This document shows, piece after piece, positions 1,473 through 56,572 of a DNA stretch of 64,000 bases. The notes under the pieces were generated by a model that searched no databases, was not told the origin of the DNA, and was given only the letters and a program-made list of their open reading frames with translations. Where the stretch lies: assembly GCA_024679065.1 (NCBI GenBank), contig JAGIQG010000014.1, positions 6,758,001-6,822,000 on the forward strand. The letters are read 5' to 3'. The position numbers and the translations under genes are program-made. The DNA is from Sphyrna mokarran (lineage: Eukaryota). The first letter of the stretch is position 1, and every line of letters begins with the position of its first letter.

Positions 1473-1542
1473 CGGGCGTACCAAAAGCTGCCAGCACGGG
1501 ATAGAAAACTTCATTGACCTGTAGAATTAATGGGCGGGCCAT
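1473..1542 (-). CDS. First coding exon of GPR139-like GPCR copy C0; its second exon lies left of the window
   Basis: ATG in acaATGg context at 1542. Encodes MARPLILQVNEVFYPVLAAFGTP plus 1 nt, followed by donor GTACGT. Homologous to the other four first exons. Confidence 0.8.
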
Positions 1543-2439
1543 TGTGATTTCGAGAAGAATGCAAACGTTTTGCTCGATGCACCGTTGTGCGAAAGATTGC
1601 TAGACTGTCGCCTTTTGTACTGTAATACATTCCCTGAGGCGAAAAAAATCAGGCTACGCACTAATTGCGTCACTTTCAGCAAATTAAATCAAAATATCCC
1701 TTTCCTCTAGAGGTAATCCGGTTGGCCAATCGACAATCTGTTAGTCCATGAAGCTCCGTCAATTGACATCCGTGATCAGGCAAGAATCCCGGAGCGCATG
1801 TGTTCTGCGCTGGCTCGCGGGAGTCAGAATAGACCATCACCATGGACACAATATTTGATTCTGTCAGCTTCATCATGCACGTATTTAAACGATGCATCTA
1901 ACGTGCAGCTCACGTATATTTCGCTCCTGTGTCCATAACTTTTCATTGATGGGCATTGTGAAAATTAGTGATGAATAGCCGTTATTATTTGTAACAATTA
2001 CCTTACTTTCCAATTTCCTGAATTGTTGGAAATAAACTACAAATTTTCCATTAGTGTTAATCTATCATTATCAATGCTAATTGAACTTCAATATGTATGA
2101 GCAAATGAATCATAACTTGAAGTGATACTATTTCAGAGTGTCTCTTGCCTAACCGTGAAATATAGATTAGGTTTTGTTCATTCTTTACCGTCCCTCTGAC
2201 GCACCAGTAAGAATTTGAGAGCCAGAGCTTGACACAGCTTAATGGACACGTTGCATCACTCTGAACGAGTGGCAGCAAGCTACTGCTGGCGATTGACCTC
2301 AATGCAACCGAGCTGCAAAGAAAATTTCAGAGCGCATTGATATATTTTTCCTTTTTGAGATTTCAGTCAATCAATAAGCGATGAAAATAGTTCCTTGCCG
2401 AGTGGGCACGATATTTCATACATTGAAATTGTATTTGCA

Positions 2440-2820
2440 GAAGTTTCCCCTGATCACTTGGCCAGTACTTAATTTGAGAAAATGTTTGTTGTCTTGGATG
2501 ATAACTTGCAATGTTGTTTTGAAACATTTCTTTTGTGCGCCACTGAAATGTACGCTATTCTTCAGTTCGGCACCGAAGATTTGAGATGAAATCAGTTGTC
2601 TGGCATTCTGGCGATTGCATCAACTCATCAGAACACTTTTCCTCATAACATTGAGAAAATCTTGACCAGACTGCATCTTCCGAGTACCTGTGTGACTGAG
2701 AATTTGTCCTGTGTCTTGATTCTGTAACGTTTGTTGAGGCAGCAAAGGTAGTTGGCTTTGAAGCATTGAAACCCAGTTGTAAAATTCTGACATAAAACGT
2801 ATATTGTGGAGTTCTGGGTG
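2440..2820 (-). mobile_element. Decayed RTE-clade LINE ORF C-terminal fragment (paralogs near 16920-17280, 30320-30700, 42990-43365, 57475-57835)
   Basis: Translates to YLCCLNKRYRIKTQDKFSVTQVLGRC..IFSML...IARMPDN...QIFGAELK...GAQKKCFKTTL. This fits the RTE pattern RCLRRILxIxWQDK...VLxR...RMxDxR.PKQ..YGEL...KRFKD.L. Confidence 0.65.
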
Positions 2821-2864
2821 TGAATTGTCATCAGAGTGCAGAAATACCAATCATCATTTTAAAA

Positions 2865-3083
2865 AATCCTGTGATCATCATGAATGAATTTTCATAAATA
2901 CTTGTCGGTTTCACTTATGCCAATGGGGAAGGAAACATGCCATCCTTACTTACTGTCGTCTGCACGTCAGTCCAGGTATACAGCAATCTATTTGACTCTA
3001 ACTGCTCTCGTAAGGACGATTTGGGATTAATAGTGAATTATGAATTCTACCAGAAGTGACCCCATCCCATAACTGAACAAAAA
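2865..3083 (+). mobile_element. Old SINE 3' half (SacSINE/DeuSINE-like; paralogs near 17325, 30745, 43415, 57880)
   Basis: ggtttcacttatgcc..ggggaaggaaacatgccatccttac...cagcaat..ttgactctaactgc...catcccat..gaacaaaaa resembles the common elasmobranch SINE body and tail. Confidence 0.55.
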
Positions 3084-3289
3084 GGACTTTTCACCTTGAC
3101 ATCAACCTCCAACCCCACCTCAATTACATCATGTCCATCAATCCAATGACACCATGCCCCGCCCTCCATCGTCCTGAGGACAAAAAAGCATAGTTCACAA
3201 TAGTATGCCAGTTCATTGCCGGTGAACTGCTTTCGTGTTCTTTTTTTTTTACTTCCAAAAATCATGCCTGCAATTGCTAATTGAAATCG

Positions 3290-4565
3290 ACACTTACTTC
3301 ATCTGGAGATGCCAAGAAGAATATTCTATACTGCGGTCTCACTTCAGTAGCCTTTGATATGCTCATCCCAACATCTGTCGAAATGCACAAAGGTAAGTCT
3401 ACAGTTTTGTTCAGGATTTCATTCTATTCTGCAATTTCATCATTCTTTGGTCACAAGTAACATTGATAGTCTCAATGATGATCTTTTATTTCCGTTCTAA
3501 AACAGTGCCATTGTTTCTAGTTTCATCAAAAAAACTGACTTCCTGTGCCTTGCGTGCTTTTCGTCATCCAAAGGTCATGATTTTTTTTTTTGCTAGCGTT
3601 AGTGTACCTCTGCTTCCATTGAATTGTAATCATTTTGAACACGCATGACAATACCCTTAACTGATGCGAACAAATCTGAAACATTCAGTGAAGTTGCAGC
3701 AATCTTTGGCAATGGTTTTCTGGTGGCATTAATTTTTTGAAGCAAGTGGCTCCACAAAACATTAAAAATAGCAGTGTCACACATTTCAAATTTCTCTGCT
3801 AAAAATTTTGTTCAACGTTCTCTTTTTTTAATTTGATTTCTTTGAAAAGACTTATTTCATATTAACAAAGTCCAGTTTCAAAGTCAAAACGACCTATGCA
3901 CGACCGGGCCACCTGATGTACAAAAGTCTTGACAAAAGTTTTAAATTTGCTTGTTCCAGGACTGATTGCAATGCATTCCACCGATGTATGGAAAACGGAT
4001 AATAGACATATTATTTGAACCCTTCAATAGAAGATATAGAGCTGGATTTATTACAGTGTTGCAGTTTCAAGTCAAAAAGAAATTGGAACATGGGACGAAC
4101 AATTCATAGTTCAGTCCCCTCTAAATCTGGATAGATTCCTCCTGTCTCCATGGCATCATCAAGGCTCTGACCAGTACCAACTTTCAAACTGTAAACCACA
4201 AAATTTGCAATAAATTCCAAACATTATTACCTCCAGGCAATCAAAAATATGGGATTGTAGCTGCCAAATATTTCATCCCACTGCAGCGTTGTTGGCCACA
4301 TAGCTCAAAAGTATTGTTAATTTGTCATACACGATTCACATCTCGCGTTGAATTGACTAACATGGAATGTTTTTTTAAACATTTTTTACTTCATTCGTGA
4401 AATGGTTTCTGAATCACTCTGTCAGACTACTGGTGAACTTAGCATAGGCCCTCAACAATAAAATGTTCGTCTTCCTAAGGCATAATACCGATGACTTTTG
4501 AAATGCTCTTGGATAAGTTTATCAAATTCACTGAGATAGTCAAAACATTTTCTTGAGGCTATATG
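3290..4565 (-). mobile_element. Decayed hAT-superfamily (Tip100/ZMYM1-like) transposase relic
   Basis: Minus-strand translation across stops and frameshifts gives, in transposase order, CFDYLSEFD, SMLVNSTRDV..DKLTILLSYV, GQSLDDA, FVPCS, SIHRW, IRWPGRA, DTAIFNVLWSHLLQKINATRK, FFDET and IETINVTCDQ. Confidence 0.75.
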
Positions 4566-4790
4566 GTTGATATTTTCCTACGTTATAAAATATTTGCCCA
4601 ATGTTTTCCCACTCCATTAATATACCTAAGTTATAAAATGTTTTTATCATTCTCCCAATCAGCGTTTTGTCCTAAATATGAGCTATCTATCGATTTCAAT
4701 GTGGTGCATTCGCTTCCTACCTCCGATTTATTAACATGTATTGTAAACAATTGCGGACACAGCACTGATCCCCATGGGAGTTCATTGGTT

Positions 4791-5625
4791 AGAATTGGAC
4801 AAGTGCAGAGCTGGGCCGAGAGGTGGCAAATGGAGTTTAATGCGGAAAAGTGTGAGGTAATTCACTTTGGCAGGAATAACAAATGTGTAGAGTATAGGGC
4901 TAGTGGTAGGACTCTTAATAGTGTTGAAGAACAGAGGGATCTTGGTGTATATGTGCACAGATCCCTGAAAGCTGACAATCAAGTCGATAAGGTTGTTAAG
5001 AAGGCATATGGAGTCTTAGCTTTTATAGGTAGGGGGTTTGAATTTCGGAGCCGCAATGTCATGTTGCAACTGTACAAAACTCTAGTGCAGCCGCACTTGG
5101 AGTCTTGTGCGCAGTCCTGGTCCCCGCATTATAAGAAAGATGTGGACGCACTGGAGAGGTTACCGAGGAGGTTTACCAGGATGTTGCCTGGTATAGAAGG
5201 CAGGTCTTATGAAGAGAGGCTGATGGATTTGAGGTTGCTTTCGTTAGAAAGAAGGTGGCTAAGAGGAGACTTTATTGAAACATATAAGATGATTAGAGGT
5301 TTAGATAGGGTGGACAGTGATAGCCTTTTTCCTAGGATGGAGAAAGCTAGCAGGAGGGGACATAGCTTTAAATTAACGGAAGGTAGTTATAGGACGAATA
5401 TCAGAGGTAGGTTCTTCACCCAGAGGGTGGTTGGGGCATGGAATGCCCTGCCTGCTGCAGTTGTAGATGCGCCACGTTTGGTGGCGTTTAAGAGGTTAGT
5501 AGATAAGTTTATGGACGAAAAGGGAATGGTTTAGGTTGGAGGGTCATTGCTTTTTCCTAATTGGTCGGCGCAACGTCGAGGGCCGAAGAGCATGTTCCGC
5601 GCTGTAGTGTTCTATGTTCTATGTT
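4791..5625 (+). mobile_element. 5'-truncated young CR1-clade LINE (ORF2 C-terminus, 3' UTR, (TTCTATG)n tail)
   Basis: Translates to [21 protein letters not shown]...LYKTLVQPHLE...FFTQRVV. The empty site ggtt|actg is seen at ~19734, ~32640 and ~60532. Confidence 0.92.
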
Positions 5626-5904
5626 ACTGGTCGCCAAAGAGAAAATTTTTCATCATTTTCTGTTTTTTTTCAATACAGAATCGGTTGATTGATGTTACTT
5701 AACATTTCACGGGAAAGAATGACAGAGAATAGATGGGATCGCATTTTACGACAAATCGCATATTCAATAATTTTGCAATTCGTTAAACCAATCTCTGACC
5801 ATTTTATAATTCCACGAATGTTTTCACAATGCAATAAGTGTCATTAATAAATGCAAACCTCAAAGCAGTCCGAAGCTTTTCCGGCGCAACGGCAACTGCA
5901 AATT

Positions 5905-5969
5905 GTTTAGTTAGTCAAAGCGCTTGCCTAGTAATCGGGGCATCCTGAGTTCAAATCTCAGCGGTGCCG
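5905..5969 (+). pseudogene. tRNA-Thr(AGT)-derived pseudogene
   Basis: Resembles vertebrate tRNA-Thr-AGT (GCTTAGTTGGTTAAAGCGCCTGTCTAGTAAACAGGAGATCCTGGGTTCGAATCCCAGCGGTGCCT, recalled from memory) from the D arm to the 3' end, followed by a T run. The 5' acceptor strand is missing or displaced and the stems are mutated. Confidence 0.75.
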
Positions 5970-8059
5970 TTTTGAATTTGTTCTGAGCATGGTGTCAAAT
6001 CAAAACAGCGACATCGAGAAAGACAGGAAGTGCGGTATAAAATTTCTGGAGGCCCATAATCTGTTAGTTATCCTGCCTTTTTGAACCAATTTGATTCCAA
6101 TGTTGCACCTCCTCCGCAAATACATCTCTCCTACTTCTTACATTTTGCTTTCATAAAGTTTCAACCTTTCTTCCGATTCACACAGTTTCTTACATTGCAC
6201 TGTTAAACTGAACGTTAATGCTATCATCAAAATTCCCTTTGGCTTGCGTTCCATGACGTATTTGGGAAATCGCTGTTCGCTGTCAGCGACCACTGCACAT
6301 CTCTTTTGATCCGTTATGTGCTGCAGCAGATTCATACTTATTATGTTGTTTTTGTTGCAGGTTTTTGCAAATGCACCATCAACGTGTTGAATGGTTGCAG
6401 CAAGAACTGTGTGAAAGGATGCAACAATTTATGTTACTGTACGTGAGATAGGAAAGATTCAGAAGGGGTAAATGGTGAAATTTCTTTGATTAAGACTCGG
6501 ATTGATCTATCTCTAGCTTTTATGTTTCACACAATTTAGAGCACAGTTTCCTGCATTGACACTCAACCCCATGGAACACCAAATAAAATCCTTTCTCACA
6601 CGCACAATCCGTCTCTGGTTCTCTGTTTCCCCAAAATTAATGAAATCTTCCAAATCCGTTGAAGAAGCAGTGCAGATAATGGGTGACAGCAATTGTCACA
6701 TCACACGGTACTAGCAAGGTGAAAGTCAGACAACTTCTAAAATGAAGCCAGTCTGTATGTGAGGGAAATGCGCTGGAGAGGATAAACTACCAAAGATCGG
6801 AATATGCAAATAAAAGCGGGAGCCGTGCCTTTAATCAAATAGTGAAGGCAGCCATGCTGCTTCAAATTGGCCATGAAACATTTAGCCTGGGGTTCAATGT
6901 GCTACTCAGTGAATGGGCGCTGCTTTCAATTTCAAGAAACCACAAAAAATGAGCAAGTTATTGGGTCATATCTTCCGTACAGAATCACGCCGGAAGGAGA
7001 TTGTGCGTCACACGTACGCGTCTTGTCAATACGGAAGTCCCTTTGTGCACTGTAAAGGCGCCATGTTCAAACCTCTGAGTGCCTTGATTTAATCGCTTTC
7101 AGGATTGGAGCGCTCTGCTGAAATGACTATGATGAGACAACGCGAACCTCTCTTCCTGAAGGAAAAGTAATAGTTGAGGATATGTGCCTGTTTGTTTGCA
7201 CTTTTGTCTGCTTCTGTTGAAGCGAATGGAAGAAGCACATATATTCCAGCTCAGTTTTTCTTTTCCTTTCTCGAACCACAAAAGAATCTAATTGACTGCT
7301 AAATGTTCTCTCGGGGGCCATTTGAGATGAACAGTAAATTGTGTCCGAGGCCAACAGCTCCCCCGTCGCACAAATGGATAAAAACTGCTGCCCTTCGTTT
7401 ATTCAATTTGCCATCATATGTATATAAGACCTGAGTCTTCCGGTTGGGTGTCACGTATGTACTTACTCTTTTCCTGATATTAATAATTTCTTACAGCGAT
7501 ATTGCCCACATGATGGACTGTGTTTTTGAGCACTTGTTTATGACAACATCGCGTAAATTACATCTCGGTTGTTTCCTGACTAGTTCACTAATTTACCATG
7601 CACAGCCGCAGTGAAGGTTAGCCTGTGCACAACACTGAACAGGAAACAATCGTTTATTTTCTGGCAAACTATTCCAAATGGAGGGATTGAAGAAGTTTGA
7701 CTGGTATCTATCCTGCATTTCCCCTTTCATTGCTGCAGCTGCCAAATTATATCAGCTAATATGTGCTGCTCAGGAATGCAAAAACAATGCAATCTCCAGG
7801 ACGAAGCGATTAATCATCTGGATAAATTGCGCCTATTGACATTCTGTAGGTTCTGAATCGATATCAGGTCCATGCATGTTGACGAATTCTGATCAGGTGA
7901 TGCATACGAGAAGAACTACAACAGGATAGATGAACGCAGACTACTTGGATGAACTGATCGATCGGAGACAAATGACAAAGAGCGGAAAGATTATATTCAT
8001 TTTAAGCTCTCGCATTTAGCATTGAATTGGGGAATGACATTATGCCACAAGAATCATCA

Positions 8060-11000
8060 GATGGCATCTGCCATGTGCAAGTATCTGTGGTCTGATGCTG
8101 CCTGTGGTCGAACGCGGCAGTTGTAGTGCAAGACACTAGCTCTGTGTTACATAGCAACTGTAGTGTAAGTCAATCCACACAATAAAGCAGTATCTGGTTT
8201 GAAACAATTGCTACAGTTTTAGAAGAAACCGCAGTGTCCGGTAGTACTTGTGGTGTAATGCAGTAGCTGTGGTGTAGGGCATAACCAGGTAAGGTACATG
8301 TAATTTAAATCTGATCCAGCAATTTCAGAGGATAACTGATCTGCAAGTCAGAACTGTGGTGTAAGGTATTAACTTTCGTGCAAGGCAGCATTTGTGATGT
8401 AAGGCAGTATCTGTGGTCCAAAGTGGAACATGTGTTGTAAGACACTTCCTGCGGTTTAAGATATATCCGTGGCGCAAGGCAGCATATCTGTAGTAGGTGG
8501 CACCAGTTATAAAAACCTTTGATATAGTGCAGTACCTGCAATATAAGACACTAATGAAGAGCAGACAGTTCCTCTGGTGAAGGCAGTATCTATGTGGTGA
8601 GATATTGTCCGACGATGTAAGACAGTACCATCTATGTGACATCGTTACTGCTCTGAGAGGAATGTCGTACAGTGAAGAGAGTATTTGGATTTGGAAGGTA
8701 TACCTGTGGTGTAAATCAATACGTGCCGTGTAAGGATGTGAGTATAGTGCAATACAATACCTTTGGTGCAATTGTTTCCTGCGCTGGCAAAAAGCTCCAG
8801 TACTGTAAGGCCGAAACTATGAGGTAAGCAAGTGCATGTGCGTAAGACAACACCTGTCTTTGCAACGCAACAACTGCGGTGTAAGGCAGTACTTGCCTGG
8901 TTAAAATCTAGGTCAGAAATTTCGTGTGTTTTATGAAGTCATAAAACTTTATGTTTTGCGTTTTGAATTTGGTTTGGATAACCATGAGATGCTTCACTTC
9001 AGATATGAATTAAACGACAGACCAGTGCGCTTTAATCAGAAAATTTAATTCCAGAATACAGTTAAGAGACCCAAAGAAAATTAGCAGTAACTTTTACCAA
9101 TCGCAAACAATAACAGAAACAACGATGATTTGTCAATCTTCAGAGCACAATGTGCCGTACCAACATAACACACTTACTAACATATGCACTTAATTTCGAT
9201 TCAACACAGAAAATACAAATGCTCAATGACGTTTCAGTTCTACAAACCATGTGGTCCTTTGGATGGAGAAATGAAACACTGCCTTCTGCATTCATAGACT
9301 CCCACACTGTGCATATACTGCCACTGCTCTCCTCCAGCTAGCAAACTACCAACAACAAAATGTTCATGCTGAAAAGTACGAAAGTCTACTTCCACTAGCC
9401 AGCAGAATTTTTATTGCCAGGGAGGGACAAACCATTGCATACAGCCTAGAATCCAAACAACTTCCAACAAACCAGCAAGAGAAACTGAAAGCAAAAGATC
9501 TCCTTCGAGGAAAAAATAAAACTCTTCCGCTTGCCCTGTCAAAAATCGGCCCCCAGCAATTCCAAAGTTGCCATAAACTCCATGAGAATGTATTACGCCT
9601 AGATTGAAAATAAATAAATAAACAATTTAATAACTTAAGGAACAATTAAATGACATTTAGTAGGCGGCTCAATGCCAGCTTCTTACTACAGCAAACATGA
9701 TTAAATTGCATTTCTTAAAGCATAATAGCGTCACTTGTGCATTATTAAACGTTCCTTGAGGTGCAAAGTGTATCAGTTGCAGAACACAAAACTTGTGGTT
9801 TCAGGTAGCAGCTGCGCGAAAAAAAACAGTAACAGTTTTTTTTTAGGGAGCATCTATGGTGTAAGGCAGTAGCTGTGGAGCTATGTTGTGCTTGCAGTGC
9901 AGGGCATTACCTACGGTGTAATGCAGTAGCTATGTTTTAACGAAATAGATTCAGTGTAAGACAACATGTATGATGTAAGGCAACATCTGTGGTTTAAGAC
10001 ATCAGTTGTGGTGTAGATAGCAACTGAGGTGTAAGGCAATAACTGTGCTGCAAACCAATTCCCGCAGTGAAGAAAGTACCTGCAGCCTGTGGAAGTACTT
10101 GTCGTGAAAGGCAAAAGCTGTGGATTAAGGTCTCAATGATAGGCCTTTAACACTGTGCTGGTGACGACAGTACCTTTATGTAAGGAAGTGTCTGAGATGA
10201 AGTCATTCCCCTCGGTGTAAGGTAGTATCATTGGTGTCGTTACTGCACTGTAATGCAGTTCGTGGAGTAAAGACAATCTACGCTTTGAAAGGTAGTACCT
10301 GCGGTATAAAGTAGAACATGTAGTGGAAGGCAGTGCTTATAATGAAGGCAGCCACTACGCTGAAGGCAGACTTATGGTGGGAGGCAAGCCATTGCTGCAG
10401 TGGATTGTAAATAAAAAATATTTGTGGTAGAACGCAACACCTACAAGGAAAGATGATACATATGGTGTAAGAAAGTAGCTTCAGTTTAAATCCTGTTGTG
10501 TAATGCAGCTTCTGAAGTTCAGGGTAGTTACTATGGTTTACATAGACACTGCGTTTTTAAGCAACGCATGCAGTGTGAGTTAGTTCCTTTAGGGTCAGTG
10601 ATACCTGCAGTGTAAGGCAGAACCTGTGGCATAAGGCAATAGCTGCAATATCTGCTGTGCAAATCATTAGTTGTAGTGCAAGGCAATATCTGTTGTGCAA
10701 TAAAATTCCTGGCGTAAGGCGGTATCGTTTTGGCAAGGAAGTAGCCTCGGTGTAAAAAATGTACAATGCGGTCTCAGTGGTTCAAGGTAGTACCTTTGGT
10801 TCAAGTTAGTATTCTGCTGGAAGTGAGCGAATGTGTTTTCAAGGAGAACCTGTGGTGTGAGACATTGGGTGCGGAGTTCGAGAGCAACTGTGCTGTAACC
10901 AGAAACTATGGTGTATGCGTTGGCATGTAGTGGCAGTAGCTGTGCTGCGAAGCATCGCCTGTGCGTAAGATACAACCGGTGGCGCAAGACAGTTGCGTGC

Positions 11001-11610
11001 GGTGTACCTGTTGTACCTGTTGTGTAAAGAAGTTGTTCAAGTGTGAAACAACATCTTTGGTGTAAGGCCGCATCTGTGGTGGAATGCAGCGTCCGCGGTT
11101 CAAGGTAATACCTGCGGTGCAATGTGGTACCCCTGTCGTAAGGCAGTATGTGGTAGAAGGCAGTCGCGGTGGTTTAAGGGAGAAACTGTGGTGTATGCAT
11201 TGCCTGCGATGTAAGGCAGGGACGTGTAAGGTAGTGCTGCGGTATCAGGCAGAAGTCGCAGCATCAGGGAGTAGCATGATTCAGGATAGTGCCTGCAGTG
11301 CAGGACGATTCCTGTCATGCAATAAATCACCTGTGCTGGAAGGTGGTTCATCGGGTTTGTATCTGCTGTATCTGTGGTGAGCCTGCGGAGAAAGTATAAG
11401 ATAGCCCCAGTGGTGTCGGCAATACCTGCTGTGTAATGTTGAACCTGTACTGTAGTCAGTACCTGCGGTGTAGACAGTAGCTATGGTGCAACACAGTTCT
11501 TGTAATTTAAGATAGCACCGACAATGTAAGGCAATAGATGCGCTGCAAGGCAGTACCTGCGATGTATCGTAGAACATGCGGTGTAAGACTTTGCGTATAC
11601 TGTACGGTAG
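8060..11610. repeat. Degenerate 19-bp minisatellite (consensus about GGTGTAAGGCAGTACCTGY), split by a non-repetitive insert at ~8900-9770
   Basis: Recurrent gtgtaaggcagta.ctg motif at ~19-nt spacing. Source of the many spurious YCL/HRY-rich ORFs. Confidence 0.85.
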
Positions 11611-11631
11611 TTAGGACTGATGCGAACTCAT

Positions 11632-11906
11632 AGCTTTATGAGGGACACAGCGTTAAATTAAGGGGTGGTGGTTATAGGACGGATGTCAGAGATAGGTTCT
11701 TTACCCAGAGGGTGGTAAGGGTATGGAATGCCCTGCCTGCGTCAGTTGTAGATGCGCCAAGTTTGGTTGCGTTTAAGAGGTTAGTAGATACGTTTATGGA
11801 CGAAAAGGGAATGGTTTAGGTTAGAGGGTCATTGCTTTTTCCTAATTGGTCGGCGCAACATCGAGGGCCGAAGGGCCTGTTCTGCGCTGTAATGTTCTAT
11901 GTTCTA
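11632..11906 (+). mobile_element. Short CR1 3' fragment inserted ~220 bp 3' of the gene A stop codon
   Basis: Matches 5355-5625. Absent at the equivalent sites near 25302 and 37931. Confidence 0.88.
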
Positions 11907-12123
11907 TTTTACTCCACTATTGAATGATAACATTCGTATTTTCACTGATCGCACAGATTGGAGTAAGCCGCTACAGAAGGAAACACTAAAACTTACTGAC
12001 GAATAGCAGTAGGCATCAGAAGATACAACAAAGAATGGCCCAGTACTTCTAGGGTCCCTTATTTAAAGAAACACGTTATATTTTTGTTGCAGGAAGGCCG
12101 GCACTCAAACATGAGCTTCACTA

Positions 12124-13052
12124 CTACCTGAACAGGGAGACAAGGTTTAATTTCGCATATTTTTGCAACATCAGAATTATGGTCCAAGGAAATTTCACGA
12201 TCTTCTTCAGCTCTTCCCTGAATTTAGCTTGTGTAGCTGCATAAATACACGTGTTCGTGCATGAACTTAAATGAATGAGCAGTGTTCCGGTTTCGGTGGC
12301 GATAAATGCAGCAGATGTGTAATCCGGCCGGACATAAACAAGCATCCGACTGGCTAGATAACTAATGACTCTTGTCGCCCACAACAATATAAAGCTACTA
12401 GAAATAGTGAACAATAAAATAATGGACTTCTTTCGGTTCTGTATCTCTGGATCATTCTGATTCTCACTGTTTTGAGCCCGCAAGCCGGCACGAGCTTTGC
12501 TGGACAACAAAATCCTTCTGATTGTCAAAAAATTAAATAGCAATATTAAAATGAACGGAATCCAGTTCAATAAGATACTTTGTAACAAGACAAATGCATC
12601 ACCAATTTGAGAAGTATAAAAATCCTGCCTAGGGATGACACCCCATTGAACACCATTTCTTGTGCTTTCATGTTCAAATGCAAACCAAACGTTCAAGTTC
12701 TGCAAATAGATAAGGACTGAGGATGTTGTTAAAACTGCAGCCGCTGTTCTCGCGGTGCAATAGATTGTTTTAAACTTCTGACTACATATAGCAATATATC
12801 GGTCAAACGTGAATGAAACTGTAAACCATACTGACATATAGAAGTTATTACAAAGCATATATATAATTAATTTGCAAACAACAGTGTAGTAGAGGAATGA
12901 ATTTGGAAAACGTTTTGTCAAAACGTTATATAAAAATACATTGATGAGCATCACTAACAAATCTGCGGTTGCCATGGCCACCATGTAGATAGAGACACAT
13001 CTGGAAAGGCCGCAATTTCCTTTGGCGAGGATCACGATGGTCACGAGATTCG
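12124..13052 (-). CDS. GPR139-like orphan class A GPCR, gene A, coding exon 2 (second half of TM1 through TM7; spliced product 332 aa)
   Basis: Open frame with hydrophobic helices and motifs ANL (N1.50), MATADLL (D2.50), VVCK (C3.25), FTFDRY, WIPF, LLWAT and NTCIY. Preceded by a pyrimidine tract and TAG acceptor at 13053-13055. Split codon G|CG = Ala. Confidence 0.93.
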
Positions 13053-32410: not shown

Positions 32411-32414
32411 TATG

Positions 32415-45098: not shown

Positions 45099-45324
45099 GG
45101 TTGATATTTTCCTACGTTATAAAATATTTGCCCAATGTTTTCCCACTCCATTAATATACCTAAGTTATAAAATGTTTTTATCATTCTCCCAATCAGCGTT
45201 TTGTCCTAAATATGAGCTATCTATCGATTTCAATGTGGTGCATTCGCTTCCTACCTCCGATTTATTAACATGTATTGTAAACAATTGCGGACACAGCACT
45301 GATCCCCATGGGAGTTCATTGGTT

Positions 45325-46159
45325 AGAATTGGACAAGTGCAGAGCTGGGCCGAGAGGTGGCAAATGGAGTTTAATGCGGAAAAGTGTGAGGTCATTCACT
45401 TTGGCAGGAATAACAAATGTGTAGAGTATAGGGCTAGTGGTAGGACTCTTAATAGTGTTGAAGAACAGAGGGATCTTGTTGTATATGTGCACAGATCCCT
45501 GAAAGCTGGCAATCAAGTCGATAAGGCTGTTAAGAAGGCATATAGAGTCTTAGCTTTTATTGGTAGGGGGATTGAATTTCGGAGCCGCAATGTCATGTTG
45601 CAACTGTACAAAGCTCTAGTGCAGCCGCACTTGGAGTATTGTGTGCAGTTCTGGTCCCCGCATTTTAAGAAAGATGTGGACGCATTGGAGAGGTTACCGA
45701 GGAGGTTTACCAGGATGTTGCCTGGTATAGAAGGCAGGTCTTATGAAGAGAGGCTGATGGATTTGAGGTTGCTTTCGTTAGAAAGAAGGTGGCTAAAAGG
45801 AGACTTTATTGAAACATATAAGATGATTAGAGGTTTAGATAGGGTGGACAGTGATAGCCTTTTTCCTAGGATGGAGAAAGCTAGCAGGAGGGGACATAGC
45901 TTTAAATTAACGGAAGGTAGTTATAGGACGAATATCAGAGGTAGGTTCTTCACCCAGAGGGTGGTTGGGGTATGGAATGCCCTGCCTGCTGCAGTTGTAG
46001 ATGCGCCAGGTTTGGTGGCGTTTAAGAGGTTAGTAGATAAGTTTATGGACGAAAAGGGAATGGTTTAGGTTGGAGGGTCATTGCTTTTTCCTAATTGGTC
46101 GGCGCAACGTCGAGGGCCGAAGAGCATGTTCTGCGATGTAATGTTCTATGTTCTATGTT
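45325..46159 (+). mobile_element. 5'-truncated CR1-clade LINE, duplicate of 4791-5625
   Basis: Same junctions and tail as 4791-5625. Confidence 0.92.
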
Positions 46160-46437
46160 ACTGATGACCAAAGAGAAAATTTTTCATCATTTTCTGTTTT
46201 TTTTAATACAGAATCGGTTGATTGATGTTACTTAACATTACACGGGAAAGAATGACAAAGAATAGATGGGATCGCATTTTACGACAAATCGCATATTCAA
46301 TAATTTTGCAATTCGTTAAACCAATCTCTGACCATTTTATAATTCCACGAATGTTTTCACAATGCAATAAGTGTCATTAATAAATGCAAACCTCAAAGCA
46401 GTCCGAAGCTTTTCCGGCGCAACGGCAACTGCAAATT

Positions 46438-46502
46438 GTTTAGTTAGTCAAAGCGCTTCCCTAGTAAACAGAGCATCCTGAGTTCAAATCTCAGCGGTGC
46501 CG
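46438..46502 (+). pseudogene. tRNA-Thr(AGT)-derived pseudogene
   Basis: Paralog of 5905-5969. B box GTTCAAATC intact. Confidence 0.75.
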
Positions 46503-48589
46503 TTTTGAATTTGTTCTAAGCATGGTGTCAAATCGAAACAGCGACATCGAGAAAGACAGGAAGTGCGGTATAAAATTTCTGGAGGCCCATAGTCTGTTAG
46601 TTATCCTGCCTTTTTGAACCAATTTGATTCCAATGTTGCACCTCCTCCGCAAATACACCTCTCCTACTTCTTACATTTTGCTTTCATAAAGTTCCAACCT
46701 TTCTTCCGATTCACACAGTTTCTTACATTGCACTGTTAAACTGAACGTTAATGCTATCATCAAAATTCCCTTTGGCTTGCGTTCCATGACGTATTTGGGA
46801 AATCGCTGTTCGCTGTCAGCGACCACTGCACATCTCTTTTGATCCGTTATGTGCTGCAGCAGATTCATACTTATTATGTTGTTTTTGTTGCAGGTTTTTG
46901 CAAATGCACCATCAACGTGTTGAATGGTTGCAGCAAGAACTGTGTGAAAGGATGCAACAATTTATGTTACTGTACGTGAGATAGGAAAGATTCAGAAGGG
47001 GTAAATGGTGAAATTTCTTTGATTAAGACTCGGATTGATCTATCTCTAGCTTTTATGTTTCACACAATTTAGAGCACAGTTTCCTGCATTGACACTCAAC
47101 CCCATGGAACACCAAATAAAATCCTTTCTCACACGCACAATCCGTCTCTGGTTCTCTGTTTCCCCAAAATTAATGAAATCTTCCAAATCCGTTGAAGAAG
47201 CAGTGCAGATAATGGGTGACAGCAATTGTCACATCACACGGTACTAGCAAGGTGAAAGTCAGACAACTTCTAAAATGAAGCCAGTCTGTATGTGAGGGAA
47301 ATGCGCTGGAGAGGATAAACTACCAAAGATCGGAATATGCAAATAAAAGCGGGAGCCGTGCCTTTAATCAAATAGTGAAGGCAGCCATGCTGCTTCAAAT
47401 TGGCCATGAAACATTTAGCCTGGGGTTCAATGTGCTACTCAGTGAATGGGCGCTGCTTTCAATTTCAAGAAACCACAAAAAATGAGCAAGTTATTGGGTC
47501 ATATCTTCCGTACAGAATCACGCCGTAAGGAGATTGTGCGTCACACGTACGCGTCTTGTCAATACGGAAGTCCCTTTGTGCACTGTAAAGGCGCCATGTT
47601 CAAACCTCTGAGTGCCTTGATTTAATCGCTTTCAGGATTGGAGCGCTCTGCTGAAATGACTATGATGAGACAACGCGAACCTCTCTTCCTGAAGGAAAAG
47701 TAATAGTTGAGGATATGTGCCTGTTTGTTTGCACTTTTGTCTGCTTCTGTTGAAGCGAACGGAAGAAGCACATATATTCCAGCTCAGTTTTTCTTTTCCT
47801 TTCTCGAACCACAAAAGAATCTAATTGACTGCTAAATGTTCTCTCAGGGGCCATTTGAGATGAACAGTAAATTGTGTCCGAGGCCAACAGCTCCCCCGTC
47901 GCACAAATGGATAAAAACTGCTGCCCTTCGTTTATTCAATTTGCCATCATATGTATATAAGACCTGAGTCTTCCGGTTGGGTGTCACGTATGTACTTACT
48001 CTTTTCCTGATATTAATAATTTCTTACAGCGATATTGCCCACATGATGGACTGTGTTTTTGAGCACTTGTTTATGACAACATCGCGTAAATTACATCTCG
48101 GTTGTTTCCTGACTAGTTCACTAATTTACCATGCACAGCCGCAGTGAAGGTTAGCCTGTGCACAACACTGAACAGGAAACAATCGTTTATTTTCTGGCAA
48201 ACTATTCCAAATGGAGGGATTGAAGAAGTTTGACTGGTATCTATCCTGCATTTCCCCTTTCATTGCTGCAGCTGCCAAATTATATCAGCTAATATGTGCT
48301 GCTCAGGAATGCAAAAACAATGCAATCTCCAGGACGAAGCGATTAATCATCTGGATAAATTGCGCCTATTGACATTCTGTAGGTTCTGAATCGATATCAG
48401 GTCCATGCATGTTGACGAATTCTGATCAGGTGATGCATACGAGAAGAACTACAACAGGATAGATGAACGCAGACTACTTGGATGAACTGATCGATCGGAG
48501 ACAAATGACAAAGAGCGGAAAGATTATATTCATTTTAAGCTCTCGCATTTAGCATTGAATTGGGGAATGACATTATGCCACAAGAATCA

Positions 48590-51500
48590 TCAGATGGCAT
48601 CTGCCATGTGCAAGTATCTGTGGTCTGATGCTGCCTGTGGTCGAACGCGGCAGTTGTAGTGCAAGACACTAGCTCTGTGTTACATAGCAACTGTAGTGTA
48701 AGTCAATCCACACAATAAAGCAGTATCTGGTTTGAAACAATTGCTACAGTTTTAGAAGAAACCGCAGTGTCCGGTAGTACTTGTGGTGTAATGCAGTAGC
48801 TGTGGTGTAGGGCATAACCAGGTAAGGTACATGTAATTTAAATCTGATCCAGCAATTTCAGAGGATAACTGATCTGCAAGTCAGAACTGTGGTGTAAGGT
48901 ATTAACTTTCGTGCAAGGCAGCATTTGTGATGTAAGGCAGTATCTGTGGTCCAAAGTGGAACATGTGTTGTAAGACACTTCCTGCGGTTTAAGATATATC
49001 CGTGGCGCAAGGCAGCATATCTGTAGTAGGTGGCACCAGTTATAAAAACCTTTGATATAGTGCAGTACCTGCAATATAAGACACTAATGAAGAGCAGACA
49101 GTTCCTCTGGTGAAGGCAGTATCTATGTGGTGAGATATTGTCCGACGATGTAAGACAGTACCATCTATGTGACATCGTTACTGCTCTGAGAGGAATGTCG
49201 TACAGTGAAGAGAGTATTTGGATTTGGAAGGTATACCTGTGGTGTAAATCAATACGTGCCGTGTAAGGATGTGAGTATAGTGCAATACAATACCTTTGGT
49301 GCAATTGTTTCCTGCGCTGGCAAAAAGCTCCAGTACTGTAAGGCCGAAACTATGAGGTAAGCAAGTGCATGTGCGTAAGACAACACCTGTCTTTGCAACG
49401 CAACAACTGCGGTGTAAGGCAGTACTTGCCTGGTTAAAATCTAGGTCAGAAATTTCATGTGTTTTATGAAGTCATAAAACTTTATGTTTTGCGTTTTGAA
49501 TTTGGTTTGGATAACCATGAGATGCTTCACTTCAGATATGAATTAAACGACAGACCAGTGCGCTTTAATCAGAAAATTTAATTCCAGAATACAGTTAAGA
49601 GACCCAAAGAAAATTAGCAGTAACTTTTACCAATCGCAAACAATAACAGAAACAACGATGATTTGTCAATCTTCAGAGCACAATGTGCCGTACCAACATA
49701 ACACACTTACTAACATATGCACTTAATTTCGATTCAACACAGAAAATACAAATGCTCAATGACGTTTCAGTTCTACAAACCATGTGGTCCTTTGGATGGA
49801 GAAATGAAACACTGCCTTCTGCATTCATAGACTCCCACACTGTGCATATACTGCCACTGCTCTCCTCCAGCTAGCAAACTACCAACAACAAAATGTTCAT
49901 GCTGAAAAGTACGAAAGTCTACTTCCACTAGCCAGCAGAATTTTTATTGCCAGGGAGGGACAAACCATTGCATACAGCCTAGAATCCAAACAACTTCCAA
50001 CAAACCAGCAAGAGAAACTGAAAGCAAAAGATCTCCTTCGAGGAAAAAATAAAACTCTTCCGCTTGCCCTGTCAAAAATCGGCCCCCAGCAATTCCAAAG
50101 TTGCCATAAACTCCATGAGAATGTATTACGCCTAGATTGAAAATAAATAAATAAACAATTTAATAACTTAAGGAACAATTAAATGACATTTAGTAGGCGG
50201 CTCAATGCCAGCTTCTTACTACAGCAAACATGATTAAATTGCATTTCTTAAAGCATAATAGCGTCACTTGTGCATTATTAAACGTTCCTTGAGGTGCAAA
50301 GTGTATCAGTTGCAGAACACAAAACTTGTGGTTTCAGGTAGCAGCTGCGCGAAAAAAAACAGTAACAGTTTTTTTTTAGGGAGCATCTATGGTGTAAGGC
50401 AGTAGCTTTGGAGCTATGTTGTGCTTGCAGTGCAGGGCATTACCTACGGTGTAATGCAGTAGCTATGTTTTAACGAAATAGATTCAGTGTAAGACAACAT
50501 GTATGATGTAAGGCAACATCTGTGGTTTAAGACATCAGTTGTGGTGTAGATAGCAACTGAGGTGTAAGGCAATAACTGTGCTGCAAACCAATTCCCGCAG
50601 TGAAGAAAGTACCTGCAGCCTGTGGAAGTACTTGTCGTGAAAGGCAAAAGCTGTGGATTAAGGTCTCAATGATAGGCCTTTTACACTGTGCTGGTGACGA
50701 CAGTACCTTTATGTAAGGAAGTGTCTGAGATGAAGTCATTCCCCTCGGTGTAAGGTAGTATCATTTGTGTCGTTACTGCACTGTAATGCAGTTCGTGGAG
50801 TAAAGACAATCTACGCTTTGAAAGGTAGTACCTGCGGTATAAAATAGAACATGTAGTGGAGGGCAGTGCTTATAATGAAGGCAGCCACTACGCTGAAGGC
50901 AGACTTATGGTGGGAGGCAAGCCATTGCTGCAGTGGAGTGTAAATAAAAAATATTTGTGGCAGAACGCAACACCTTCAAGGAAAGATGATACATATGGTG
51001 TAAGAACGTAGCTTCAGTTTAAATCCTGTTGTGTAATGCAGCTTCTGAAGTTCAGGGTAGTTACTATGGTTTACATAGACACTGCGTTTTTAAGCAACGC
51101 ATGCAGTGTGAGTTAGTTCCTTTAGGGTCAGTGATACCTGCAGTGTAAGGCAGAACCTGTGGCATAAGGCAATAGCTGCAATATCTGCTGTGCAAATCAT
51201 TAGTTGTAGTGCAAGGCAATATCTGTTGTGCAATAAAATTCCTGGCGTAAGGCGGTATCGTTTTGGCAAGGAAGTAGCCTCGGTGTAAAAAATGTACAAT
51301 GCGGTCTCAGTGGTTCAAGGTAGTACCTTTGGTTCAAGTTAGTATTCTGCTGGAAGTGAGCGAATGTGTTTTCAAGGAGAACCTGTGGTGTGAGACATTG
51401 GGTGCGGAGTTCGAGAGCAACTGTGCTGTAACCAGAAACTATGGTGTATGCGTTGGCATGTAGTGGCAGTAGCTGTGCTGCGAAGCATCGCCTGTGCGTA

Positions 51501-52140
51501 AGATACAACCGGTGGCGCAAGACAGTTGCGTGCGGTGTACCTGTTGTACCTGTTGTGTAAAGAAGTTGTTCAAGTGTGAAACAGCATCTTTGGTGTAAGG
51601 CCGCATCTGTGGTGGAATGCAGCGTCCGCGGTTCAAGGTAAGACCTGCGGTGCAATGTGGTATCCCTGTCGTAAGGCAGTATGTGGTAGAAGGCAGTCGC
51701 GGTGGTTTAAGGGAGAAACTGTGGTGTATGCATTGCCTGCGATGTAAGGCAGGGACGTGTAAGGTAGTGCTGCGGTATCAGGCAGAAGTCGCAGCATCAG
51801 GGAGTAGCATGATTCAGGATAGTGCCTGCAGTGCAGGACGATTCCTGTCATGCAATAAATCACCTGTGCTGGAAGGTGGTTCATCGGGTTTGTATCTGCT
51901 GTATCTGTGGTGAGCCTGCGGAGAAAGTATAAGATAGCCCCAGTGGTGTCGGCAATACCTGCTGTGTAATGTTGAACCTGTACTGTAGTCAGTACCTGCG
52001 GTGTAGACAGTAGCTATGGTGCAACACAGTTCTTGTAATTTAAGATAGCACCGACAATGTAAGGCAATAGATGCGCTGCAAGGCAGTACCTGCGATGTAT
52101 CGTAGAACATGCGGTGTAAGACTTTGCGTATACTGTACGG
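48590..52140. repeat. Degenerate 19-bp minisatellite 3' of gene A' (insert ~49430-50305)
   Basis: Duplicate of 8060-11610. Confidence 0.85.
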
Positions 52141-52164
52141 TAGTTAGGACTGATGCGAACTCAT

Positions 52165-52439
52165 AGCTTTATGAGGGACACAGCGTTAAATTAAGGGGTG
52201 GTGGTTATAGGACGGATGTCAGAGATAGGTTCTTTACCCAGAGGGTGGTAAGGGTATGGAATGCCCTGCCTGCGTCAGTTGTAGATGCGCCAAGTTTGGT
52301 TGCGTTTAAGAGGTTAGTAGATACGTTTATGGACGAAAAGGGAATGGTTTAGGTTAGAGGGTCATTGCTTTTTCCTAATTGGTCGGCGCAACATCGAGGG
52401 CCGAAGGGCCTGTTCTGCGCTGTAATGTTCTATGTTCTA
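52165..52439 (+). mobile_element. Short CR1 3' fragment 3' of gene A'
   Basis: Duplicate of 11632-11906. Confidence 0.88.
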
Positions 52440-52656
52440 TTTTACTCCACTATTGAATGATAACATTCGTATTTTCACTGATCGCACAGATTGGAGTAAG
52501 CCGCTACAGAAGGAAACACTAAAACTTACTGACGAATAGCAGTAGGCATCAGAAGATACAACAAAGAATGGCCCAGTACTTCTAGGGTCCCTTATTTAAA
52601 GAAACACGTTATATTTTTGTTGCAGGAAGGCCGGCACTCAAACATGAGCTTCACTA

Positions 52657-53585
52657 CTACCTGAACAGGGAGACAAGGTTTAATTTCGCATATTTTTGCA
52701 ACATCAGAATTATGGTCCAAGGAAATTTCACGATCTTCTTCAGCTCTTCCCTGAATTTAGCTTGTGTAGCTGCATAAATACACGTGTTCGTGCATGAACT
52801 TAAATGAATGAGCAGTGTTCCGGTTTCGGTGGCGATAAATGCAGCAGATGTGTAATCCGGCCGGATATAAACAAGCATCCGACTGGCTAGATAACTAATG
52901 ACTCTTGTCGCCCACAACAATATAAAGCTACTAGAAATAGTGAACAATAAAATAATGGACTTCTTTCGGTTCTGTATCTCTGGATCATTCTGATTCTCAC
53001 TGTTTTGAGCCCGCAAGCCGGCACGAGCTTTGCTGGACAACAAAATCCTTCTGATTGTCAAAAAATTAAATAGCAATATTAAAATGAACGGAATCCAGTT
53101 CAATAAGATACTTTGTAACAAGACAAATGCATCACCAATTTGAGAAGTATAAAAATCCTGCCTAGGGATGACACCCCATTGAACACCATTTCTTGTGCTT
53201 TCATGTTCAAATGCAAACCAAACGTACAAGTTCTGCAAATAGATAAGGACTGAGGATGTTGTTAAAACTGCAGCCGCTGTTCTCGCGGTGCAATAGATTG
53301 TTTTAAACTTCTGACTACATATAGCAATATATCGGTCAAACGTGAATGAAACTGTAAACCATACTGACATATAGAAGTTATTACAAAGCATATATATAAT
53401 TAATTTGCAAACAACAGTGTAGTAGAGGAATGAATTTGGAAAACGTTTTGTCAAAACGTTATATAAAAATACATTGATGAGCATCACTAACAAATCTGCG
53501 GTTGCCATGGCCACCATGTAGATAGAGACACATCTGGAAAGGCCGCAATTTCCTTTGGCGAGGATCACGATGGTCACGAGATTCG
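52657..53585 (-). CDS. GPR139-like orphan class A GPCR, gene A', coding exon 2 (spliced product 332 aa)
   Basis: Near-identical to gene A exon 2 (protein differs at N/Y and V/I only). TAG acceptor at 53586-53588. Confidence 0.92.
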
Positions 53586-55900
53586 CTATAAAAACAAGGG
53601 AGAAAAACCAAGTCATGGAAACAGTTTGGTTACACTCAGTATACTTTCGTGAAATGTTTGGATGCACTTTTGCTCGCTTATACACATGGGCTCAGTCTAT
53701 TGCACAAGACAGCAAAGGTGATATATTTATTGAAATATCAATATTTAAGCACCTGCGATGTTCTCCCAGTCGCAGTAACAGAAGTACAATCTTTTCTACA
53801 TGTTGAGGAGAGGGTCGCCAGATTCAGTCTACAGAATGTTAATGGAAAGCTCTCCTCAGCACCATCGACAACTGAAGAACCCAAGTCTTAAATGGCATCA
53901 GTTATGATTTCGGAGACTTGTATAAACCGGGTGATCTGGGATCAGCTTCCTTGCATCTATATCGATTTAATTACATTTAGCATCACCCCTGACACTAGCC
54001 CGAGACTCCATTCATCCTAAGTCGAAATCAAACGTCATGCCGCGTGCCCGAAGGGAAATCCACAGGAAGGAAATTCCGATTTGCTCAATAAATTGTACAT
54101 TTTGTCATTTCCTCAGTGAGTGTCCTCGGCTCAAACGTCTTCAGATTCATCTATATTACTCCAATATAACGACATAATTGAGAATGATCATTGATGGCTA
54201 CACAATGTATCACATGTGAGTCTTCAGATACCGAAGCAGCCCGTGTCTAAATGCAGCAAGATCTGGACAAAATGCAGATTTGGGCTCACGAGTGGGAATA
54301 ATGGCTGTGTCACGCAAATCTCGGGGAATGGCCGCTTACACCAATACATAATCTAACCATTTCCCCTTAACATTCGATGCCATCATTGAGTCCGCAACTG
54401 TTAGCATCAACCATAAACTCTACCTGAACTGTGCGAGCCATATGAAAAATAAAGTTTAGAAAATCTCAGCACGGCTGACAGATTCCGTCGGGAAGAAAAT
54501 TGTCGGCGCTTTTTCTAGCATTCCCTACTTTTATTTCAGATTTTAGCATGCACTTTATTTGGCTAATTTTAGCAAATAAATAATGTCCACAAAAGCAGAT
54601 CAGCGGTTTCGAAAGCTTCGGTGAATATCAGACCTCTTGTCTCCCAAAATCCTATGCACTGTTTCTAAGTTGATGGAGTGATGGAATACTCTCCACTTAC
54701 CTGCCCGAAGGCAGCTCCAAAGACCCTCAAGATGTTCTAGACAATGAAGGACAAAGCAGGCAGTCGGATTGCTAATCCGCTCACAAAATGTTAACTACCG
54801 CTACTGCAGACGCGCTATAGCAGCCGTGGGCAGCACTTAAGGAACACACCAGGCACCTTACACAGCATTATAACAAACCCTCGACTACGATCATCTAAAA
54901 AGTAACGGGCAGCAGATATCTGAGAACACCGCCATCTTAATATTGTCACAAAGTCATTGGACGAACTGAGTGGAAAATATATCGCTGTTCCTTCACTGTA
55001 ATTGTGTCAAAATCTTGGAACTCTCTTTTCCTCAACCAGCACTGTGGGTGCACTTACAACTTCGAAAGCAGCGAATCAGGAAGGCAACTCACCACCCGTA
55101 TCCGAAGAGCAGCGAAAAATGAAAAATAATGGACATGCATGCCCACATCACACAAATAAATAAAATGAATGCGACCAAACAAATGATTCATTTCTATACA
55201 GTAATTTGCTGCGCTGCAGCTTTGACAACTCAATCCATCCACCACGAGGCTTGTATCAGGTGATGCACCGACCAATTGTATAAGTGATCGCGGCGGCACG
55301 GTGGGGCAATCCATTGAACTTAGCGTCTTAAGTTTACTTTCAAGAGCTGCGTCCAATATCAGGGGCGGTAAGCGTAATATTCACTCGTTATGTAAATAAT
55401 AATAGTCTTTCAAATAAATCAGTGAGGTGAGAAAATAGCTATTGAAATTAATTCGAAGCGGTGGGATTCTAACGTTTATCATCAGCGGAAGGGAGCTGTC
55501 GGGCACAGAAAAGGAAACTGATTTGCAACCCTGAGGAGAGCAGCAGCCTCCTGAACAGGTTTTCCTTTTCCTTGAAATACATTCCAGTGATTTTTGCTTT
55601 CCCGAGAGGCCGCATTTCGAGGTATTGTCATCTTAAAGAAGTAAGAATACATATTGTCACTGCAAATAATTCGCATAGAGAATATGAACTGTCGGAAGGG
55701 AAGAGTATCAGCCTCAATCTCCGTTAATGTGGGGAGGGAATTTAAACTTCAGGTGTCACATTCTGAGCTGAACCGCGGCTCACAGGCGATGACAACCGTT
55801 GAGACTCTCACTGATATTCAACAATTTATCTCGGCAGAGAAAAGACATTGCAATAATGACCTTCTCGCAATCAGTTTGCTGAATCGGTGAGCAGTGAGTG

Positions 55901-56357
55901 ACAAAGAACAAAAACAGCCCGGGAAACAGGCCCTTGGCCCAATGAGCCCGCTCCGCAACCTCGATATTCCCACTTCTACCCATGAATCCTGTCATCCCTG
56001 TCTATTTTTATAGATCTATGCATTAGAACCAAATTTGAGAGAATTGAGGGAGAATTTGTTCTGTCAATCAGCCTAAGAGCACATCTTTGGGATGTGGGAG
56101 GAAACCGGAGCACACGGAGAAAACCCACGCAAGCACGGGGAGAATGCGTAATCTCCCACAGACACCGGCCCAAATCCATGTATCTGCACAGCACAGCAAT
56201 AGTCAGCTGTCGTGATGCCGATCAACAGGCCCAGGTCAAGCGTATACTAACAATGTGAAGCAACAGGCTACTCTTGAAAAATCCAAGAGCAGCCCTCTCA
56301 CGGCACATCGCGTGTATTCCCTTTGTTATACAAGGCGGACCGAAGTCCCCGTAGGAT
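55901..56357 (-). mobile_element. Composite V-SINE, intronic copy in gene A'
   Basis: Paralog of 15369-15819. Confidence 0.8.
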
Positions 56358-56502
56358 AAAACAAATACATCAATATCTTCAAAAATTTACACATTTCCCA
56401 GGGAAGTCACAAGGCTTATGATGCCTATTTTAAAATCAGTTTTCCATATCCCCCCATGCCCGGTATGCCGCAACTATGAGACAACACGGTGCATTGACTT
56501 AC

Positions 56503-56572
56503 CAGGCGTACCAAAAGCTGCCAGCACGGGATAGAAAAAATCAGTGAACTCTAGAATTAATGGGCGGGCCAT
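56503..56572 (-). CDS. GPR139-like GPCR gene A', first coding exon
   Basis: MARPLILEFTDFFYPVLAAFGTP plus G, then donor GTAAGT. Intron 53586-56502. Visible inside track ORF 56474..56713. Confidence 0.85.

Follow-up and report, generated by a model that had tools for sequence, protein, structure and literature searches.

A tandem array of GPR139-like receptor genes in Sphyrna mokarran as part of a very large elasmobranch family, a candidate chemical-sensing repertoire

Cartilaginous fishes have been called poor in G protein-coupled receptors (GPCRs) (excerpts of PMC8455134), and they are described as smelling with some 50 receptors (excerpts of PMC10116579 and PMC11979771). In the catshark, the available text of PMC10116579 counts 4–9 genes each of the OR, TAAR and V1R families and 34 V2R genes, with olfactory neurons that are all Go- and TRPC2-positive. 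The branch of receptors that includes GPR139 and GPR142 is placed as sister to the protostome MIP/FMRFamide-type receptors (PMC8557429, in excerpt); the same branch (Pfam srw), including a ‘GPR139’ gene, is expanded and expressed in the osphradium of a snail (PMC10638732, in excerpt). Beside GPR139/142, Rinne et al. 2019 (PMC6504862) list three fish/gar/coelacanth sets of single-copy orphan receptor genes under the tentative names GPR210A/B, and the text available from that source includes no shark. Here we analyze a stretch of 64,000 nucleotides from the elasmobranch Sphyrna mokarran (assembly GCA_024679065.1, contig JAGIQG010000014.1, positions 6,758,001 to 6,822,000), hereafter the window, which contains five tandem GPR139-like receptor genes. 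On balance, we lean towards reading it as the product of recent tandem amplification in one part of a very large family of elasmobranch class A receptors, which arose from a single-copy sister branch of GPR139/142 and is likely a many-ligand chemical-sensing repertoire, most likely one facing the environment.

The five copies, named A to E, are two-exon class A (rhodopsin-like) GPCR genes, all on the minus strand. Their number and common orientation are those given by the first-pass annotation of this DNA, which had put their spacing at 13–14 kb; the unit spacing is slightly wider, 12.6–14.5 kb. A 70-base coding exon 1 sits ~2.9 kb upstream of each exon 2, and the window holds five exon 1s (starting at 1542, 16020, 29458, 42087 and 56572) and four exon 2s (starting at 13052, 26450, 39078 and 53585):

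1473..1542, minus strand: copy A exon 1, with 70 coding bases; the gene is complete (333 amino acids, aa), its exon 2 being located immediately beyond the left edge of the window
12124..13052, minus strand: copy B exon 2, from the end of transmembrane helix 1 (TM1) to the stop; Pfam 7tm_1 E 2.9e-17, Srw E 3.1e-7
15951..16020, minus strand: copy B exon 1; spliced product 332 aa, intron 2898 bases
25519..26450, minus strand: copy C exon 2; Pfam 7tm_1 E 3.9e-16
29389..29458, minus strand: copy C exon 1; spliced product 333 aa, intron 2938 bases
38147..39078, minus strand: copy D exon 2; open frame, 7tm_1
42018..42087, minus strand: copy D exon 1; spliced product 333 aa, intron 2939 bases
52657..53585, minus strand: copy E exon 2; 98.5% identical to copy B at the amino-acid level
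56503..56572, minus strand: copy E exon 1; spliced product 332 aa, intron 2917 bases

The four long minus-strand frames encode 7tm_1 domains scoring above the Pfam cut-off, which assigns the copies to class A. Splicing of the complete copies B, C, D and E at GT..AG sites gave proteins of 332, 333, 333 and 332 aa, in agreement with the open frames and intact splice sites that had been annotated. The class A hallmarks N1.50, D2.50, D/E-R-Y/F, P5.50, W6.48 and the TM7 N-x-x-Y are present in all window copies and near-invariant in the 89 family sequences aligned below.

These copies amount to less than 0.5% of the family. Genome-wide counts with two family motifs gave 588 + 711 = 1,299 loci for the TM3 motif and 514 + 610 = 1,124 for the TM7 motif, with 0 and 0 matches to the reversed-pattern controls. 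The earlier claim of an expanding, uncharacterized family is supported. Over the range listed for both motifs, 61 matches were common to the 92 of TM3 and the 100 of TM7, giving, when scaled up, a union of ~1,650; a capture-recapture estimate of 1,700–2,100 is rough, since the motifs depend on the subfamily. Among public proteins, the TM3 motif recovered 105 of 120 family members and the TM7 motif 62 of 120, against 2/268 and 0/268 other proteins. The first 30 TM7 loci, taken unselected (21 from one cluster, 2 exact duplicates), comprised 19 open by a strict rule, three more open from TM1 to TM7, seven broken and one cut by a contig end; a cautious reading is 800–1,200 open loci. In a protein search of the genome, the 126 candidates scored of 2,444 were all significant, with an internal stop in 19. 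Contigs longer than 10 Mb that carry open members number at least 19, many of these members being close to a contig end, and open and broken copies stand side by side within clusters. The family is thus a large, clustered repertoire with birth-and-death turnover. Comparable expansions occur in at least 13 shark and ray species, and deep subfamilies are common to sharks and rays. The label ‘young, lineage-specific’ therefore holds for this sub-array only and not for the family, which sharks and rays share and which counts more than 1,100 loci on many chromosomes.

To describe the ligand pocket, we aligned 89 family sequences (median identity 46%), 19 of 108 loci having been excluded beforehand by an open-frame rule, and mapped 26 positions, which we take to be the standard class A pocket set, by alignment to GPR139. 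Mean entropy was 2.40 bits at the 26 pocket positions, 1.92 at 40 neighbouring positions of the extracellular half and 0.91 at 86 positions of the cytoplasmic half. The pocket differed from its neighbours with p 0.015 (p 0.0002 when residues were compared by chemical class) and from the cytoplasmic half with p 3e-10. The pocket contrast persisted with 60 sequences under 80% identity and was absent in the control sets (p 0.18–0.83), namely GPR139/142 (27 rows, 52% identity), a set of orthologues for one of the single-copy relatives (14 rows, 55%) and the single-copy sequences taken together (46 rows, 30%). Among the 89 sequences we found 62 distinct nine-site pocket signatures. Arg6.51 was present in 27/27 GPR139/142 sequences, in 13/14 orthologues of one single-copy relative and in 4/4 others; only 10/89 family members had it. 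A hypervariable pocket together with a conserved cytoplasmic G-protein face is the pattern of a ligand-diverse sensory repertoire. Here it affects pocket sites that do not vary in any of the single-copy relatives. According to these results, there is good support for ligand diversification from one subfamily to another; counting methods do not establish positive selection.

Activation of GPR139 requires F109, H187, W241 and N271 (PMC5430874, in excerpt), and its agonists contact E108 and R244 (PMC12775434, in excerpt). At F109, H187, W241, N271, E108 and R244, the window copies carry C, Q, W, T, L and R, respectively, and 0/89 family sequences hold all of the four residues required for activation. 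Aromatic-amino-acid sensing, which the first-pass annotation named for mammalian GPR139 and GPR142, cannot be transferred to the window copies, because four of five GPR139 Trp/Phe-site/agonist residues differ (E108, F109, H187 and N271 are changed; W241 and R244 are kept). The cysteine of extracellular loop 2 (ECL2; window protein residue 162), a partner in the usual class A disulfide and present in 80/89 family sequences, is lost in 25/25 genes of the local subfamily, which keep the TM3 cysteine and have no N-glycosylation sequon. The closest Heterodontus and Carcharodon relatives are likewise without the ECL2 cysteine, and the human GPR139 and GPR142 rows also have no aligned cysteine there.

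We then placed the family relative to GPR139. A motif derived from the alignment of solved GPR139 matched one place in the genome (C749), with a product 98% identical to the Mustelus asterias GPR139 cluster and 86% to human GPR139. GPR142 is a second single gene on another contig, and the family members follow at 24–33% identity; a window copy is 17–23% identical to GPR139/GPR142. For the trees, the shark GPR139 was searched against 50% representatives to obtain outgroups, 20 of which were identified by name. The first tree, built after dropping 2/191 short rows and representatives under 260 aa, put amphioxus proteins, one bichir and one frog protein beside the family. With a profile of the bichir and frog proteins, single-copy orthologues were recovered from ray-finned fishes as well as from lungfish, sharks and frogs, with three single genes in this genome:

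L084, G000:C1104:25011285-25012232: single-copy GPR139-like orphan gene
L085, C816:3841913-3842887: single-copy GPR139-like orphan gene
L086, C805:46800503-46801390: single-copy GPR139-like orphan gene

These three are orthologues of bichir/teleost/lungfish and frog proteins misnamed GPR139; they have Ser or Cys at the place of W6.48 and keep Arg6.51 and Asp7.36. Judging from their taxon spread, they probably correspond to GPR210A/B and to the third gene set of Rinne et al. 2019. The 120 matches listed included no amniote orthologue. In a mixture-model tree of 40 of 61 rows, the family had supports of 100/100, the family plus the single-copy genes 100/98, and both plus amphioxus 97/90, while GPR139/142 formed a separate branch with lamprey and hagfish (100/99). 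The deuterostome clade, including a hemichordate row, received 98/95 and was sister to the protostome MIP/FMRFamide-type receptors. Forcing the family together with GPR139/142 was rejected (p-AU 0.0004, approximately unbiased test), with some caution due to the long family stem (1.11). The order of branching of the single-copy genes relative to the family had support of 70/54, and the family would be at most a many-to-one sister or co-orthologue of these genes. Hence the array was rightly annotated as something other than the GPR139 orthologue, and in the tree proposed at that stage it forms a separate clade; its nearest relatives are a sister chordate branch of single-copy genes rather than GPR139/142. 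A one-to-one orthologue with copies collapsing on reassembly, the case named as refuting, did not hold, with GPR139 elsewhere and copies ~10% apart in their introns. The phase-1 intron at the end of TM1 is found in 86/89 open loci, in GPR139, in GPR142 and in the three single-copy relatives. Among the matches listed, all members of the expanded clade came from sharks and rays, with no protein of a bony vertebrate among them, chimaeras being outside the search. The deepest-branching member in all three trees, L024 (G000:C446:4669497-4670345), is closest to GPR139 by score and is a candidate for the least derived, ancestral-like gene. The intronless L026 (G000:C557:49938967-49939797) is an outgroup, presumably a somatostatin-receptor-like gene from its sequence.

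Regarding divergence inside the array, copies B, C and D differ by 6–11% in protein. Introns of non-sister window copies are ~10% apart, with 20–23 gap openings in 2.9 kb, which confirms the many indels annotated in the unit DNA, and the coding sequences have zero gaps. At the intron rate, the probability of zero indels over 996 bases is ~0.0004–0.001 per pair. By counting methods, five non-twin window pairs gave a synonymous divergence (dS) of 0.076–0.111, a non-synonymous divergence (dN) of 0.032–0.053 and a dN/dS of 0.37–0.48; with kappa 3 (transitions weighted three-fold), the same five pairs of six gave 0.49–0.64. Transition and transversion counts in the introns were about equal. The local subfamily yielded 24 genes; for the 19 that were distinct and full-length, dN/dS was 0.31–0.53. 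Stops were present in 3/21 closest copies. The near twins B (16020/13052) and E (56572/53585) showed five non-synonymous and no synonymous differences. A dN/dS near 1, together with a lack of transcripts in any tissue, had been named as refuting; a dN/dS of about 0.4–0.6 was observed instead, so the window genes are under purifying selection and kept functional with ordinary turnover. Within two young arrays, the corresponding ratio of proportions (pN/pS) was 0.28–0.37 in the pocket, 0.30–0.97 in ECL3 and 1.62 in the exon-1 N-terminus, the latter on 10+2 changes only. The same arrays had more change in the extracellular loops (59:36 vs 40:52, p 0.013, uncorrected for site make-up).

A self-comparison showed the 12.6–14.5 kb unit recurring through the window at about 89–90% identity. 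The other features of the locus are:

40552..59166, plus strand: repeat of the higher-order unit of three genes found at window 1-18613 (18.6 kb), at 98.3% identity
36006..36105, no strand: scaffold gap of 100 N within the array
1034..36005, no strand: 35-kb inverted block, 99.85% identical to G000:C446:6418053-6453018, stopping exactly at the gap
8001..12000, no strand: degenerate ~19-base satellite, 3' flank of copy B, recurring at ~22001-25500, 37001-38000 and 48501-52500
35974..36504, plus strand: reverse-transcriptase fragment (Pfam RVT_1, E 1.7e-14) adjoining the gap, a long interspersed nuclear element (LINE) remnant separate from the receptor genes

Copies B and E are near-identical because the higher-order repeat 1-18613 matches 40552-59166. 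Neither this repeat nor the scaffold gap had been noticed in the first-pass annotation. The 99.85% block is either a recent gene conversion or a duplicated haplotype (assembly duplicate); it may double-count copies B and C and so inflate the local number, and it cannot produce the 10% differences between neighbouring copies. Around it, inverted arms of at least 160 kb at 94–98% identity pair G000:C446:6380001-6520000 with 6678001-6852000, and a tandem pair of 11.3 kb at 99.65% (6395512-6418149) lies in the same locus. Several plus-arm copies have shortened introns (846 and 1820 bases). The ~19-base satellite lies 3' of each gene and moves along with the unit, and Tandem Repeats Finder detects it only at 37575-37625; a 26-base satellite upstream of the genes was rejected, as only the ~19-base period was found, located 3'. 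Open frames of 325 aa at 4557-5534 and 45091-46068 (plus strand) are confined to the higher-order twin units and have no Pfam match; we take them to resemble the 3' end of a LINE ORF2. An element of ~480 bases (window 857-1335 vs 18281-18758, plus further copies), found in both orientations per unit at 83% identity and once inside an intron, is probably a short mobile element.

As a mechanism for the repertoire we favour, unequal crossing-over and inverted segmental duplication would amplify the 13-kb unit. The small molecules or peptides bound would differ from one subfamily to the next, and the subfamilies would signal via one shared G protein. The expressing cells would be sensory cells facing outside, in the nose, taste buds, skin, gills or gut, with few members per cell, as for ORs, TAARs and nematode srw. 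The chemosensory or metabolite-sensing role is suggested by the diversity of the pocket. A more specific version is put forward tentatively, as somewhat doubtful: in sharks and rays, about a thousand intact class A receptors, expressed in the nose or other sensory epithelia, would constitute a fifth family of vertebrate chemoreceptors, built from the peptide-receptor branch of which mammals retain only GPR139/142. RefSeq models of some family genes carry isoform X1–X3 labels, which, as labels only, hint at transcript support. Several points weigh against the sensory interpretation. The pocket positions were placed by an alignment at ~24% identity and not by structure, and the 89 sequences were picked from match lists, 20 of them from one cluster. 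Motif matches were not individually confirmed, and the TM3 motif had also hit two non-family proteins of the 268; about a tenth of the loci look like exact duplicates and possible assembly artefacts, with exact twins on small contigs. No region has a pN/pS clearly above 1, and the diversification may reflect relaxed constraint instead of positive selection. Moreover, expression of catshark ORs and of some V2Rs has been found in spleen, stomach, testis or rectal gland (excerpts of PMC11979771), so a receptor repertoire need not be olfactory.

One could argue that the ligand-diverse repertoire works inside the body, in leukocytes, mast-like or barrier cells sensing microbial or host peptides and metabolites, as in the rodent MRGPR or formyl-peptide receptor expansions. 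This we consider rather unlikely: it would leave the same sequence signature as a sensory repertoire, and both the derivation of the branch from peptide receptors (excerpts of PMC8557429) and the expression of catshark OR genes in spleen and stomach (PMC11979771, in excerpt) fit it, but the size does not. Presumably, families of more than 1,000 members occur among vertebrate GPCRs only in chemosensory ones. A role in reproduction, through sperm/oviduct chemoreception or pheromone-like signals, with turnover driven by sexual selection or amplicon dynamics, would suit the amplicon-like layout (the inverted arms and the 99.85% block) and the testis enrichment of several catshark chemoreceptor genes (excerpts of PMC11979771); as the clusters lie on at least 19 large contigs rather than one chromosome and the deep subfamilies are shared by sharks and rays, we hold it to be improbable. 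Only a little less so is redundancy, in which most of the copy number would simply result from chromosome ends that are prone to duplication, and the genes would be weakly selected and share one or few ligands. The relaxed dN/dS of 0.3–0.6, the quarter of sampled loci that is broken and the many clusters within few Mb of contig ends are in line with it, although coding indels are purged, the cytoplasmic half is conserved over a median identity of 46% while pocket chemistry changes class, and comparable expansions recur in the species mentioned above. The least probable explanation by far is an artefact, with the array being an assembly error or the GPR139 orthologue assembled several times. 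The 35-kb block that ends at the gap and matches another place on the contig, and the exact twins on small contigs, point that way; at most the local count is inflated, and a pure artefact was rejected on the ~10% intron and 6–11% protein differences between copies B, C and D and on the true, single GPR139 and GPR142 elsewhere.

RefSeq already lists family genes, under the misleading name ‘probable GPR139’. Full-text literature searches returned no paper describing the family, and the main texts of PMC12294341, bioRxiv 2025.06.08.657570, PMC10620051, PMC11979771 and PMC8455134 do not mention it; there was no match for it in the supplements of PMC8455134 (24 files) and PMC7677710 (3 files), and those of PMC11979771 and bioRxiv 2025.06.08.657570 may list the family or its expression. 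What the present analysis adds is the two-motif counts with their controls, the placement beside single-copy GPR210-like genes and not GPR139, and the controlled pocket analysis. A family of 1,100–1,650 loci overturns the ‘GPCR-poor’ description of cartilaginous fishes, whatever its function. If it is a fifth chemoreceptor family of this kind, it would outnumber the known olfactory receptors ~twenty-fold and would explain a keen sense of smell despite the tiny OR/TAAR/V1R/V2R set. As a mega-repertoire that vertebrates evolved independently out of a branch of neuropeptide receptors, it would parallel nematode srw. In addition, it would offer a natural library of pocket variants beside the drug target GPR139.

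Finally, we compared the family with known systems. The GPR210A/B-type genes of bichir, sturgeon, teleosts, lungfish, frog and this shark share with it the intron, the TM3 cysteine and a similar first intracellular loop, and join it at 100/98; they differ in being single-copy with a conserved pocket (Arg6.51, Asp7.36) and in their 22–29% median identity to the family, and the available text of Rinne et al. 2019 (PMC6504862) reports no expansion. GPR139, after which RefSeq names the family, is the best solved-structure match (E 4e-12) and has the same phase-1 intron and W6.48, but GPR139/142 form a separate clade of single conserved genes in the same genome, at 17–23% identity. Like the OR, TAAR, V1R/ORA and V2R/OlfC families, this one is clustered over many chromosomes with birth-and-death turnover, a short N-terminus, a variable pocket and a conserved cytoplasmic face, and its size is in the range of mammalian ORs. 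It differs from them in its ancestry, from the branch of protostome MIP/FMRFamide/proctolin receptors (excerpts of PMC8557429), and in its TM1 intron. Pfam returns only 7tm_1 and Srw for the receptor frames, and the nearest relatives are GPR139-like and not OR, TAAR, V1R or V2R, in trees that held no OR/TAAR rows. The nematode srw and mollusc srw-FMRFamide-receptor-like expansions belong to the same deep branch: copy B passes the Pfam Srw cut-off (30.4 bits vs 22.2), and srw clusters are among the Atlas neighbours. Unlike these, the shark and ray family is an independent vertebrate expansion, inside the chordate clade and apart from the protostome receptors.

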